A stretch of 64,000 bases of DNA from Escherichia phage NHEP1. The notes under the pieces were generated by a model that was not told the origin of the DNA, searched no databases, and saw only the letters and a program-made list of their open reading frames with translations. The position numbers and the translations under genes were made by a program. Below, piece after piece: positions 2,599-6,170 of this stretch (position 1 is its first letter; every line of letters begins with the position of its first letter). The stretch lies in the sequence record PQ511146.1; one strand, given 5' to 3'.

Positions 2599-2877
2599 AT
2601 GAGCTGTGAAAAATCTTTTTTCATTATCATCTACGGTAAGGATAACTGCCCACATTGTGTAAGAGCAAAAGAATTTGCAGCAAGCAAAGGTATACCTTTC
2701 GTATACAAGACGCTTGGTGAAGGATACACAAAAGAAGAGCTTATTGAGAAGTGTAGTCCATTTGTTCCCAGAACGTTGCCTCAGATCTTCTTGGAAAGCA
2801 ACCTTGATAGTGTCCACATCGGTGGTGCTGACGATTTCATCTCTTTTGTTAAGAATGGTTTTGGAGAGAAAAAGTGA
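2599..2877 (+). CDS. Glutaredoxin/NrdH-like thiol-disulfide oxidoreductase
   Basis: 92 aa with CPHC redox motif near N-terminus; sits between nrdB and nrdD. Confidence 0.7.
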   Translation: MSCEKSFFIIIYGKDNCPHCVRAKEFAASKGIPFVYKTLGEGYTKEELIEKCSPFVPRTLPQIFLESNLDSVHIGGADDFISFVKNGFGEKK

Positions 2878-4997
2878 AAATTGTAAAACGGGACGGTAGA
2901 GAAGAGGTCTATAACGGAGTTAAGGTAATCAAGGCGGCAGAGTCCGCCTTACTTGAGTCTGGGCATACTGAAGAAGAAGCTTACCGGATCGCTTGTACGG
3001 TTAATGAAGTTGTTGCCAACAATCTACCAACCGACCAGTGCACGATCTCTGTAAAAAATATCCATATCCTTGTTGAAGATGCTCTTATGGATATGGGTTT
3101 AAAATGTGCAGCCAGAGAATATATCCAGTATAGACAGACAAGAGATAATAACAGAGAGGCAGGTGGAAAACTGCTTGCAGATATTAGTGGCTTCTTGGAT
3201 CGAACTTGTGATGAATTTACAAAAGAAAACGCAAATAAGCCCACTAATCATGTACATACTCATCGTGACCTGCTTGCAGGTATCCTTAGCAAACACCTTG
3301 CATCAACACAGATACTGCCAGATCGTGTCTCCGAAGAGCACAACAAGGGATTCATCCATGTGCATGATCTTGACTATCTGATCAGTCCGTTAACAAACTG
3401 CTGTTTGGTGAATTATCCGGATATGCTGGAAAACGGATTCAACATTGGCAACGCCCATGTCAGTAAGCCGAAGTCAATAGGGGTTGCAACAACAATCCTC
3501 AGCCAAATCTCTAGTGCAGTAGCTAGTGCTCAATATGGTGGTCAGACCATGAGCCATATTGATCATTACCTGGCGCAGTATGCTGAAGCAACCTATGAGA
3601 AGAATCTTAAATTTTGTCAGGAACATTGGTTGCCGGATGCTGAGACTGTTGCAATGCAAATGACGGATAAAGACGTGTTTGATAGTATGCAAACTTTGCT
3701 ATACCAAATCAATACGTTAACTTCTGTCAACGGGCAAACCCCATTCATCACATTAAGTTTAGGACTGGATACCTCAATCTTTGGTAGAATGATTACCAAA
3801 AACTACCTGAAAGTCCACAAAATGGGTCTTGGTGAAGAACGTATCACACCTGTGTTCCCTAAGGTGCTGTTCTTCCTGGAGGAGGGTATCAACATGAACC
3901 CTGGGGATCCTAACTATGATTTGAAACGATTAGCTCTGGAATGCTCTGCAGAGCGGATTTATCCTGACTTCGTATCTGTACCACTAAATAGAAAAGTGAC
4001 AGGTTCAACAGAAGGTAATGTCACAAGCATGGGTTGCCGGAGTTTTCTTAGCAAATACAATGACTTGGAAACAGGAGAGGAGAAATACCTTGGCAGATTT
4101 AACTTAGGTGTTGTTAGCCTTAACCTACCAATGATTGCGGCAAAAGCTAAAACGGAAGGTGTTGATTTCTTTGCAGTTCTTGACGAGTACTTGGATCTGG
4201 CATACGAGGCTCACCTTGTAAGGGTTAACCGTCTAAAAGGAACAAAGGCAGGGCAGAACCCCATCATGTGGTGTGAAGGAGCCCTTGCTCGCCTGGATCC
4301 TGAAGAGAGCATTGATAAACTCTTCTATGACGGGTATGCTTCCATAAGTATTGGGTATATTGGTGTGTATGAAACCTGCCAGATTTTAGGCAGAGAGGGA
4401 GACAAGTCCTTAGCTCTTGGGATCCTTCAACACATGAAAGACGCTTGTGATCGGTACAAAAAAGAAAGTGGTCTGGCATTCAGCTTGTACGGCACTCCTT
4501 CAGAGAGCTTGTGCTATAAGGCTGCAACATGTCTAGATCGTGAATACCCTGAAGTGTTGAAGCACGAGCACGAATACCTTACCAACAGTTTCCACCAACC
4601 CGTGTGGATCAATAGCTCACCTTTTGACAAGTGGAAGTATGAGGAAGGTTTTGCTATGATCTCTTCTGGCGGCAACATTGGATACATAGAAACACCTAAC
4701 CTGAAAAACAACCTGGATGCTTTGGAATCCCTTGTCGATTTCGGGTATAAACACATTATGTATTTTGGTATTAACCAACCTGTGGATAAATGTCTTAAGT
4801 GCGGATTCTCTGGTGAGTTCAGTGCAACAGCTAAAGGCTTTGTATGCCCAGAGTGCGGAAACCATGAAGAGGGAACGATCAGTGTGATTAGACGTGTATC
4901 TGGGTATCTGTCCAGTCCAAACTCCCGCCCTTACAATAAGGGTAAGCAGGCTGAGGTTATAGAACGGGTTAAGCACTACGGAAGTTGTGGTTGCTGA
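2874..4997 (+). CDS. nrdD: Anaerobic ribonucleoside-triphosphate reductase (class III)
   Basis: 707 aa; C-terminal zinc ribbon CLKCGF...CPECG and glycyl-radical motif RVSGY. Confidence 0.9.
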   Translation: MKIVKRDGREEVYNGVKVIKAAESALLESGHTEEEAYRIACTVNEVVANNLPTDQCTISVKNIHILVEDALMDMGLKCAAREYIQYRQTRDNNREAGGKLLADISGFLDRTCDEFTKENANKPTNHVHTHRDLLAGILSKHLASTQILPDRVSEEHNKGFIHVHDLDYLISPLTNCCLVNYPDMLENGFNIGNAHVSKPKSIGVATTILSQISSAVASAQYGGQTMSHIDHYLAQYAEATYEKNLKFCQEHWLPDAETVAMQMTDKDVFDSMQTLLYQINTLTSVNGQTPFITLSLGLDTSIFGRMITKNYLKVHKMGLGEERITPVFPKVLFFLEEGINMNPGDPNYDLKRLALECSAERIYPDFVSVPLNRKVTGSTEGNVTSMGCRSFLSKYNDLETGEEKYLGRFNLGVVSLNLPMIAAKAKTEGVDFFAVLDEYLDLAYEAHLVRVNRLKGTKAGQNPIMWCEGALARLDPEESIDKLFYDGYASISIGYIGVYETCQILGREGDKSLALGILQHMKDACDRYKKESGLAFSLYGTPSESLCYKAATCLDREYPEVLKHEHEYLTNSFHQPVWINSSPFDKWKYEEGFAMISSGGNIGYIETPNLKNNLDALESLVDFGYKHIMYFGINQPVDKCLKCGFSGEFSATAKGFVCPECGNHEEGTISVIRRVSGYLSSPNSRPYNKGKQAEVIERVKHYGSCGC

Positions 4998-5060
4998 TAC
5001 TTGACAAAAGTCACAAGGATGTGGCATATTGTTGTCACACAGTAAACTAGGAGGTGCAAT

Positions 5061-5177
5061 ATGTCTACAGGTATTTATAAAATTTGCAAGTGTGGTTGTC
5101 ATTGCAATCTTCGTTGGTGTAAGGCACTGGACGATTTTATTTGGCATTGTCCTAAATGCGATGCGGAGTACGTATGA
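5061..5177 (+). CDS. Small Cys-rich zinc-ribbon-like protein (38 aa), stop overlaps nrdG start
   Basis: AGGAGG 6 nt upstream of ATG; translation MSTGIYKICKCGCHCNLRWCKALDDFIWHCPKCDAEYV; ATGA overlap with nrdG; below the 60-aa track cutoff. Confidence 0.5.
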   Translation: MSTGIYKICKCGCHCNLRWCKALDDFIWHCPKCDAEYV

Positions 5178-5647
5178 ATATTGTCGGGTATACAGAGATA
5201 TCTTACACCGAGGGGCCAGGCATTAGGACAGCTTTGTGGGTATCTGGGTGCCCACACGCTTGTCCTGGTTGCTTTAATCAAGCATTTTGGTCAAAAGATA
5301 AAGGAAGAGAGTTCACCGAAGAAGATTTGCAGAAAATTTTGTCGGATTTAGACAATGAATCTGTATGCGGTATTTCTTTGCTTGGTGGAGAGCCTTTGGC
5401 TACGTATAATGAGCCCGGTATTATTAAACTTATGAGGAGAATTAAGGAAAAGTTTGGTGACAAGAAAACTATTCTTGTGTATACTGGGTTCACATTTGAG
5501 CATATCTCTAGTGATGTTCTTGAGCTGGCTGATATCATCATTGATGGCAAGTATGTAAAAGATTTACCAACAAAGAAACCATTCCGAGGCAGCGATAACC
5601 AAAGAATGTTTAAAAAGGTAGCAGGCGGTTGGGTTCAGGTTGACTAA
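5174..5647 (+). CDS. nrdG: Anaerobic RNR activating enzyme (radical SAM)
   Basis: CPHACPGC (CxxxCxxC) cluster motif; start moved to ATG 5174 (MNIVGY). Confidence 0.85.
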   Translation: MNIVGYTEISYTEGPGIRTALWVSGCPHACPGCFNQAFWSKDKGREFTEEDLQKILSDLDNESVCGISLLGGEPLATYNEPGIIKLMRRIKEKFGDKKTILVYTGFTFEHISSDVLELADIIIDGKYVKDLPTKKPFRGSDNQRMFKKVAGGWVQVD

Positions 5648-5650
5648 TCG

Positions 5651-5680
5651 TTGACAAAGCTTTGGTAAGTTGGTTATAAT
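5651..5680 (+). promoter_or_regulatory. Sigma70-like promoter TTGACA-N18-TATAAT
   Basis: Consensus hexamers seen at 5651-5656 and 5675-5680. Confidence 0.5.
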
Positions 5681-5709
5681 TATCGTAATGAAAGCAGAGG
5701 AGGTGCCAA

Positions 5710-5823
5710 ATGGCTAAAAAAGCCTTGAAGAAGGCGTACAAGAAAGAGATTGCGCTTGAGCTTAAGAAAAAACACAAGCGTGAAAAGAAATATCATGAAG
5801 ATGAAGAGGGGGTGCAACAGTGA
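5710..5823 (+). CDS. Small lysine-rich protein (37 aa)
   Basis: GAGGAGG 6 nt upstream of ATG; MAKKALKKAYKKEIALELKKKHKREKKYHEDEEGVQQ; stop overlaps GTG start of next ORF. Confidence 0.4.
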   Translation: MAKKALKKAYKKEIALELKKKHKREKKYHEDEEGVQQ

Positions 5824-6170
5824 CACAAGAGCGTATTGATTTAGCCAGTAAGTTTGTAGATCTCATTTTGCCACGGTTGGTTACTCAACATGCAGACGCT
5901 ATTTCTACTAATCTTGATGGCTTACGCCTAATGCTGAACCGAACAGATGACCCACGTATTCGGGCCGATTTAGAGGCCTCTGCCAACAAACTGGAAAAGT
6001 TCTTGCAAGTAGACACGCAAGAAGCCTTGCACAAGATTATGGTGGAAGGTTTCTCTAAAGAATTCACCGTTAAAGAGCTTAAGGAGCTGATCCGCCAAGA
6101 AGAGATGAATATCCGAGTTCAGGCTGTTGCAAGCAGCATGGAAGCGGCTATTGAAAAACTGTTGCAGTAA
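5820..6170 (+). CDS. Hypothetical protein (GTG start)
   Basis: Track ORF, 116 aa, coupled to upstream small ORF. Confidence 0.5.
   Translation: MTQERIDLASKFVDLILPRLVTQHADAISTNLDGLRLMLNRTDDPRIRADLEASANKLEKFLQVDTQEALHKIMVEGFSKEFTVKELKELIRQEEMNIRVQAVASSMEAAIEKLLQ

Follow-up and report, generated by a model that had tools for sequence, protein, structure and literature searches.

What is encoded in the short interval between nrdD and nrdG of Escherichia phage NHEP1, and does its position inside the class III ribonucleotide reductase (RNR) genes mean that its product works with them? We analyzed 64,000 nucleotides (nt) of this genome (PQ511146.1; this whole stretch is called the window), which belongs to an rV5-like coliphage (Vequintavirus); the region is 92–98% identical to ~120 rV5-like coliphages. 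An initial annotation of the window had described an unannotated zinc-ribbon open reading frame (ORF) of 38 amino acids (aa) at 5061–5177, translationally coupled to nrdG, and had proposed it as a metal-binding partner within the anaerobic RNR module. The substitution pattern indicates that 5061–5177 is a real gene under strong purifying selection. As to its product, the Cys7 peptide, we lean toward an autonomous small metal-binding accessory protein, whose coupling to nrdG reflects the cassette and does not signal a partnership. The features of the gene are as follows.

5061–5177, plus strand: Cys7 mini-protein gene (PHROG 20137), 38 codons, ATG at 5061 and TGA at 5175–5177.
5049–5054, plus strand: Shine–Dalgarno sequence AGGAGG of the peptide gene, with a 6-nt spacer to the ATG.
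5165–5168, plus strand: GGAG, the Shine–Dalgarno sequence of the next cistron, inside peptide codons A35–E36 and 5 nt before the nrdG ATG.
5174–5177, plus strand: ATGA stop/start overlap, in which the peptide TGA (5175–5177) overlaps the nrdG ATG (5174–5176), as read from the sequence.

The peptide translated from the window is MSTGIYKICKCGCHCNLRWCKALDDFIWHCPKCDAEYV (38 aa). It holds seven cysteines (C9, C11, C13, C15, C20, C30, and C33) and not the four cysteine pairs first counted. The N-terminal knuckle of this form is CKC, that is, CxC instead of CxxC, and the C-terminal one, CPKC, does not vary. Three length forms were found: the 38-aa form with CKC, a 41-aa form with CKHC in typing phage 14, and a 53–54-aa form with a Lys/Glu-rich N-terminal extension and CK[DH]C, so that the knuckle is canonical (CK[DH]C) in both longer forms. 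The strong AGGAGG reported before the ORF is present as described, and so is the overlap of its TGA with the nrdG ATG. Within the window, AGGAGG followed by an ATG after 4–8 nt occurs 18 times against 2.6 expected by chance; this motif therefore marks real gene starts in this phage. All myovirus loci retain a Shine–Dalgarno sequence (AGGAGG, AGGAG, or AAGGAG) at the same spacing, including those with unrelated upstream DNA. The ATG at 5156 is not the nrdG start, because in locus L001 and other relatives a frame begun there meets a stop at once.

The coding analysis covered a 28-codon core common to 20 loci, which represent 15 distinct sequences. Between the window and lineage C, a group of metagenomic myoviruses, there are 10 synonymous and 4 non-synonymous differences (synonymous divergence, dS, ~2.1; non-synonymous divergence, dN, 0.06; their ratio, omega, 0.03; binomial p 1e-5). 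Omega is 0.06 for the window against the copy in the podovirus vB_EcoP_ACG-C91 (hereafter ACG-C91) and 0.01–0.05 for the remaining inter-lineage pairs, with dS near saturation. Variable sites number 9, 2, and 19 at codon positions 1, 2, and 3 (p 7e-4). In 20/20 loci the peptide frame is open, which holds for no other frame. The invariant residues are C9, K10, C11, G12, C13, C15, N16, L17, R18, W19, C20, K21, L23, D24, D25, I27, W28, C30, P31, C33, E36, and Y37. The initial annotation had suggested looking for small conserved ORFs between nrdD and nrdG in related phages and had named a lack of conservation, with a non-coding pattern at synonymous sites, as the outcome that would speak against it. 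The ORF proved to be conserved in relatives, with a dN/dS of 0.01–0.06 and the third-position excess given above. Across lineages whose synonymous sites are saturated, the peptide is the best-conserved product of this gene block.

Among the 15 distinct sequences, four codons show no synonymous variation, with dS saturated elsewhere: L17 CTT (5109–5111), D25 GAT (5133–5135), P31 CCT (5151–5153), and E36 GAG (5166–5168). The constancy of E36, which is GAG in 15/15, is explained by the Shine–Dalgarno sequence for the next cistron that is embedded there. In ACG-C91, the ATG of the downstream ligase gene is preceded by the same embedded GGAG. The fixed codons at L17, D25, and P31 may have to do with preferred codons, a target site of an endonuclease, or simply the few sequences sampled.

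Whether the peptide belongs to NrdG can be judged from the company that it keeps. Four arrangements were found. In type A (the window; 85 records), nrdD is followed by an optional endonuclease gene, the peptide, the ATGA overlap, and nrdG allele 1. In type B (rV5 itself; ~33 records), the peptide gene ends in TAA without an overlap and is followed by orf34, orf78, and nrdG allele 2. In type C (lineage C, loci L006–L008), the 53–54-aa form overlaps a third nrdG allele by ATGA or GTGA. Type D is ACG-C91, a Vectrevirus without nrdD or nrdG, in which a nucleotide kinase gene is followed by the peptide, ATGA, and a gene with ATP-dependent DNA ligase domains. A stop/start overlap together with a downstream Shine–Dalgarno sequence inside the upstream ORF, as expected for translational coupling, is present in the window and in the type A, type C, and ACG-C91 loci. 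Given the embedded GGAG and the ATGA overlap, translation of NrdG in the window is probably coupled to that of the peptide by termination–reinitiation. The coupling to nrdG first described thus stands for the window, in the form of the ATGA overlap, and does not extend to the rV5-type third of the genus.

The nrdG gene itself is mosaic. Among phage records, 85 carry an nrdG at least 90% identical to that of the window and 33 a 54%-identical allele. Identity between the window and rV5 is ~90–97% up to ~5175, the peptide stop codon, then collapses across a 385-nt insertion and the diverged nrdG, and is regained to ~97% at ~5575–5600. Since similarity breaks at the peptide stop codon, it is nrdG that has been exchanged, and the peptide gene, like nrdD, belongs to the backbone. 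Pairwise identity among the three NrdG alleles is 50–57%, against 83–95% for the peptide across the same lineages. Between lineage C and the window, identity is 83–88% for the peptide core, 53–57% for NrdG, 51–59% for PhoH, and 35% for orf116. The C-terminus of NrdD is conserved to a degree comparable to the peptide (96% identity over the last 45 aa in L006). In phAPEC8, whose NrdG is the nearest outside this group (47%), nrdD overlaps nrdG directly through ATGA and there is no peptide ORF; no convincing Cys-rich ORF analogues were found beside nrdG in Slopekvirus, Mooglevirus, or phAPEC8. A dedicated NrdG partner is therefore not what these comparisons describe: adjacency and coupling are not present in all carriers, and the peptide neither co-varies nor is co-inherited with NrdG. 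The two Vequintavirus nrdG alleles (window 5174–5647; L011 3502–3975) sit in flanks that are >95% identical, and the extra ORFs of the rV5 type encode 34 aa (highly basic) and 78 aa (mislabelled "putative minor capsid protein").

The distribution of the peptide is restricted. Homolog and locus searches were made with a 43-aa in-frame extension of the peptide and a 54-column alignment. Apart from ~120 Vequintavirus records, tblastn found the peptide in a single unrelated phage, ACG-C91. A 5.8-billion-protein index gave nine peptide clusters, and an exhaustive HMMER search over 1.84 billion representatives gave two (the 54-aa and 41-aa forms), with no remote homologs and no fusions. Three loci in IMG/VR and five in a metagenome scan were all type A or B Vequintavirus loci or ACG-C91 itself, and no relative was found in bacterial and archaeal genomes of 185,579 species. 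This is a very narrow family, without detectable relatives beyond a handful of coliphage lineages. About 18 GenBank records (MG0656xx) labelled "Campylobacter phage", with C. jejuni as host, are 92% identical to the rV5-like coliphages here, and their organism and host labels look doubtful.

In ACG-C91, the peptide ORF replaces the slot content of sister podoviruses from start codon to start codon, and the transfer junction, ATGAATAT, is common with the nrd locus. A stretch of 8 nt is common to the start of the ligase gene, ATGAATAT(A/C)TTC, and that of nrdG, ATGAATATTGTC, and is a plausible microhomology for exchange. The ACG-C91 copy is nearest to that of L009 (72/84 nt), and the transfer was therefore not very recent. 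The locus shows one lateral transfer of the peptide to a different downstream enzyme gene. The gap between the kinase and ligase genes of Vectrevirus is a variable small-ORF slot (L004 3998–4108, which is NC_019403.1 18871–18981; L014 773–889; L015 773–946). Its occupant is the Cys7 peptide (in ACG-C91, where it is unannotated), a four-Cys zinc ribbon of 38 aa, or a 57-aa ORF; the latter two are unrelated to the peptide, and each of the three overlaps the ligase ATG.

Because the same cassette precedes other ORFs and a different nrdG in rV5, and a DNA ligase gene in ACG-C91, the peptide appears to be autonomous and not specific to NrdG; judged by sequence, it is independent of the nrdG allele. 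The gene is part of the conserved backbone of the rV5-like myoviruses, immediately downstream of nrdD. The peptide most likely forms a zinc-ribbon-like three-stranded sheet clamped by the N-terminal CxC/CxxC and C-terminal CPxC knuckles, and three further invariant cysteines could then serve a second metal site or one between molecules. Metal binding by the peptide is what we infer. If there is a target in the RNR module, the conserved C-terminal domain of NrdD is a more plausible one than NrdG.

Beyond PHROGs, sequence searches did not place the peptide in a known family. Pfam and NCBIfam gave no match at E ≤ 1, with none to NRDD (PF13597), Gly_radical (PF01228), or radical SAM (PF13353/PF04055), and a PDB sequence search gave nothing significant (best PDB hidden Markov model, E 0.44). 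Two possible origins were rejected: derivation from the zinc ribbon of NrdD (hhalign probability 9.7%, generic knuckles only) and derivation from zinc fingers of the neighboring endonucleases (hhalign probability 2.4%, resemblance at the level of knuckles only).

Several observations weigh against an autonomous zinc-binding accessory protein. The AF2 model, built on a shallow alignment, has strands at 16–20, 25–30, and 35–37 and is of low confidence (mean predicted local distance difference test, pLDDT, 63). The top Foldseek matches in the PDB are all zinc ribbons (Rpb9, the N-terminal ribbon of a NUDIX protein, and ZifS), at non-significant E-values of 2.2–3.3. From the zinc ribbon first proposed, what is left is a Cys-rich, zinc-ribbon-like peptide, a description that is reasonable if unproven. 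Seven invariant cysteines exceed the need of a plain structural zinc ribbon and hint at redox or Fe–S chemistry. About 130 of the 131 known loci lie between nrdD and nrdG, the pattern expected of a class III RNR accessory factor, and the order nrdD–peptide–nrdG survives in lineage C despite different genes upstream of nrdD and downstream of nrdG. Finally, ACG-C91 is one genome only, and as the host of this phage has an NrdD and an NrdG itself, an RNR-directed role is still compatible with it.

These points lead to the alternative that survives best, that the Cys7 peptide is a dedicated accessory subunit of class III RNR, which we consider possible but rather unlikely. It would bind NrdG or the C-terminal Zn/glycyl-radical domain of NrdD and would supply or stabilize metal, or pass electrons to the [4Fe-4S] cluster of the activase in the manner of a rubredoxin or desulforedoxin, improving anaerobic activation. 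This would explain why the gene lies between nrdD and nrdG in ~130 loci from three lineages, lineage C with its changed wider neighborhood included, and it would also explain the seven invariant cysteines and a degree of conservation that tracks the NrdD C-terminus. There is also precedent in the YfaE, NrdI, and NrdH helpers of other RNR operons. However, the peptide gene is neither coupled nor adjacent to nrdG in rV5-type phages, where a breakpoint separates the two; it does not co-vary with the three NrdG alleles; phAPEC8, whose NrdG is the closest one outside, lacks it; and it is coupled to a ligase gene in a podovirus without nrdD or nrdG. Neither a fusion to NrdD or NrdG among 1.84 billion proteins nor a rubredoxin or other family signal was found, and the resemblance to the NrdD zinc ribbon is confined to its knuckles. 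A bolder form of this idea, for which we would give somewhat longer odds, makes the peptide a previously unrecognized third component of phage class III RNR, a redox-active or metal-delivering mini-subunit that sits on the C-terminal domain of NrdD or supplies the cluster of the activase. If true, such a component would work with any NrdG allele and even with the host enzyme, and the swapping of alleles and the survival of the peptide in ACG-C91 would both be accounted for. At 38 aa it is easily synthesized, and it offers a cheap, well-defined candidate for testing small helpers of class III RNR.

Mobility raises a further question, as the spacer between nrdD and the peptide gene is a homing hotspot. 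Genes for GIY-YIG-type endonucleases (T5orf172/MUG113, DUF723, DUF4379) lie directly upstream of the peptide in L005, L007, and L012, and an HNH gene is found inside nrdD in L006 and many relatives. The 41-aa peptide gene of typing phage 14 (KP869112.1; L005 1501–1626, compared with L007 and L003) is a chimera. In its 5' part, the upstream hairpin, the Shine–Dalgarno sequence, and the first ~16 codons are lineage-C-like, and the accompanying endonuclease is 50% identical to that of L007; its 3' part, from "cttcgttggtg" onward, is 29–30/30 identical to ordinary Vequintavirus. The chimera bears the signature of a homing-associated co-conversion tract that ends inside the gene. Co-conversion of this kind has been described in T4, and nrdD and nrdG are known targets of the seg and mob genes in T4-like phages (PMC2988022). 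It could be supposed, then, that the ORF is a hitch-hiker or selfish cassette, which persists through co-conversion at the endonuclease hotspot or through ORF-precise movement of the kind seen in ACG-C91, with little benefit to the phage. We regard this as improbable. It would account for the arrival of the 5' part of the chimera with an endonuclease gene and for the common junction in ACG-C91, but mobility does not explain a dN/dS of 0.01–0.06 at saturated dS. It also leaves the invariance of the seven cysteines and of NLRW, LDD, IW, and EY unaccounted for, and every one of the ~120 Vequintavirus records has the gene, with or without a neighboring endonuclease gene. The locus also offers a clean natural example of two processes, the ORF-precise exchange of a cassette among coliphages that are unrelated, and homing-endonuclease co-conversion that stops within a gene.

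Amino-acid-sensing leader peptides are known from trp and his attenuation, and the Cys7 ORF could be viewed in a similar light, as a leader whose translation alone matters, through delivery of ribosomes to the nrdG start or as a Cys-tRNA-sensing attenuator, and whose peptide has no function. The ATGA/GTGA overlap, the Shine–Dalgarno sequence of the next cistron in the last codons, and four Cys codons within seven codons would all suit such a role. We consider it very improbable, since constraint at the amino acid level is strong along the whole core, non-Cys residues included, rV5-type phages keep the peptide without the overlap, and there is no conserved terminator or antiterminator. The record of phage Murica (L024 451–474) has a terminator annotated inside the peptide ORF. 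As a terminator or Cys-sensing attenuator, this hairpin was rejected: its stability does not exceed that of shuffled sequences (z −1.24 to +1.13), compensatory changes are lacking, and the L006 and L007 sequences disrupt it. The last alternative, a chance ORF or a non-coding spacer with a terminator, in line with the Murica annotation (at the equivalent of ~5111–5134, with no coding sequence) and with the pipelines that skip the ORF, is effectively refuted by dN/dS, the 9/2/19 distribution over codon positions (p 7e-4), the one frame open in all 20 loci, the Shine–Dalgarno sequence kept across unrelated upstream contexts, and the non-significant RNA fold inside the ORF. Judged on the substitution pattern, the selfish, leader, and non-coding explanations all fit poorly, and an autonomous accessory protein is the reading that we retain.

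The surroundings of the gene in the window are compact, with the order nrdA, nrdB, glutaredoxin, nrdD, peptide, nrdG, two small ORFs, phoH, and a clpP-like gene. The elements that frame the peptide gene are as follows.

2874–4997, plus strand: nrdD, catalytic subunit of class III RNR, 707 aa (Pfam NRDD 2.8e-161, Gly_radical, ATP-cone).
5001–5030, plus strand: sigma-70-like promoter, TTGACA–18 nt–(TG)CATATT, matching the consensus at 10/12 positions, with an extended −10 TG; it lies in the 63-nt nrdD/peptide spacer.
5174–5647, plus strand: nrdG, radical-SAM activase, 157 aa, "allele 1" (Pfam Fer4_12 4.6e-43, Radical_SAM).
5651–5680, plus strand: perfect sigma-70 consensus promoter, TTGACA–18 nt–TATAAT, matching at 12/12 positions; it corresponds to the annotated P118 of rV5 and bounds the peptide–nrdG unit.

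With promoters at 5001–5030 and 5651–5680, the peptide and nrdG look like a two-gene unit. The first promoter would drive transcription of the peptide as first cistron, followed by nrdG. Its sequence has been retained in every Vequintavirus locus that lacks a homing-endonuclease insertion, and a weak hairpin (5010–5025) falls within its spacer. A stable hairpin precedes the Shine–Dalgarno sequence in lineage C loci and in loci with an upstream endonuclease gene (z −2.35 in L006). Just downstream of the second promoter, at 5698–5823, lies another tiny ORF (37 aa, Lys/Glu-rich, phrog_7670) that has an AGGAGG to itself (5698) and overlaps a 116-aa gene (5820–6170, phrog_7650) through GTGA, a compact coupled architecture like that of the peptide and nrdG.

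On the other side, the glutaredoxin gene (2599–2877) overlaps the GTG start of nrdD by 4 nt. The nrdD gene is intact in the window and split by an HNH homing-endonuclease insertion in FV3, FFH2, slur16, YP-6, WalterGehring, and others. The C-terminus of NrdD carries a Zn ribbon (CLKC...CPEC), the glycyl-radical motif RRVSGY, and the tail GSCGC. The terminal Cys pair of this tail (4983–4994, ...HYGSCGC), which recalls the redox-shuttle tails of class I RNRs, is CGC or CSC in Vequintavirus and CC in L008, and there is none in L006. As a feature that might co-vary with the peptide it was rejected, being present in Vequintavirus and L008 and absent in L006.

The ORF had been put forward as unannotated, small, and easily missed. 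It is a genuine Cys-rich gene that several records omit, but it is by no means new to the databases. The exact coding sequence is annotated in S127 BCL3 (WGL32831), FFH2, the BASEL phages (bas51_0185, "hypothetical protein"), and many others, and about two-thirds of the public records among the tblastn matches listed have a coding sequence at the peptide locus. The peptide also matches phrog_20137 (E 6.3e-30) over its entire length, with residues 1–38 on profile positions 1–38 of 38. It is thus already catalogued in GenBank, RefSeq, and PHROGs, yet uncharacterized, and our literature searches found no paper on it. Other records deviate. The rV5_ev147 record has no coding sequence at the locus; gp109/ORF114 of the rV5 RefSeq record (L011 2936–3163) is a 75-aa ORF in a different, non-conserved frame over the peptide gene; and P0002 of phage Alma is a 61-aa frameshifted version of the peptide. 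FFH2 ORF107 (RefSeq YP_009031017) is labelled "ribonucleotide reductase". Such labels, including "putative anaerobic ribonucleoside-triphosphate reductase", appear to derive from adjacency only, there being no homology to NrdD or NrdG. We advise that the peptide gene be called consistently and that reductase labels derived from adjacency be dropped. If the peptide is merely another small zinc-binding accessory protein of phages, this annotation hygiene would be the main value of the analysis.

How, then, does the Cys7 peptide compare with known systems? The GenBank coding sequences and PHROG 20137 are the same family at the same nrdD–nrdG locus, and the only difference is V38 in the window instead of L. 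Small stand-alone zinc-ribbon or CPxCG proteins, such as ZifS (TTHA0897, PDB 8yoz), a haloarchaeal CPxCG protein (PDB 8q5b), and the Rpb9/TFIIS type, are similar in size, in the CPxC knuckle, and in the predicted three-stranded sheet. Unlike them, the Cys7 peptide has seven invariant cysteines and not four, has a CxC first knuckle in its 38-aa form, and reaches no significant score. The four-Cys ribbon of the K1E/SHAK7163 type (MTCPNCG...CHSC) is a positional analogue, with the same length, slot, and ATGA overlap onto ligase. However, it is unrelated in sequence, and its weak, sub-threshold NCBIfam matches (GDCCVxC, ECs_2282, Lar restriction alleviation) have no counterpart in the Cys7 peptide.

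Small redox helpers are familiar from other RNR operons. The YfaE ferredoxin accompanies nrdAB, and the NrdI flavodoxin and NrdH redoxin accompany nrdEF; all of them serve class I enzymes. To our knowledge, no class III RNR helper of this kind has been described, and our literature searches found no small one. The Cys7 peptide is likewise small, Cys-rich, and located inside an RNR cluster, but Pfam, NCBIfam, and PDB searches showed no homology to YfaE, NrdI, NrdH, or rubredoxin/desulforedoxin; with rubredoxin, whose Pfam and NCBIfam profiles it does not match, the likeness is limited to the CPxC motif.

The mobile cassettes at the nrd loci of T4 offer a parallel in organization. There, nrdA and mobE overlap through UAAUGA, and mobC lies between nrdG and nrdD (PMC2988022), so that in both cases a stop/start overlap occurs in an nrd operon and mobile ORFs land in the interval between nrdD and nrdG. 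Unlike mobE, the Cys7 ORF does not encode an endonuclease and is the upstream member of its overlap. Because selfish cassettes such as T4 nrdA/mobE use it too, a stop/start overlap is weak evidence of partnership (PMC2988022). The Cys7 peptide is best filed as an addition to the small Cys-rich, zinc-ribbon-like phage proteins of compact, coupled operons.

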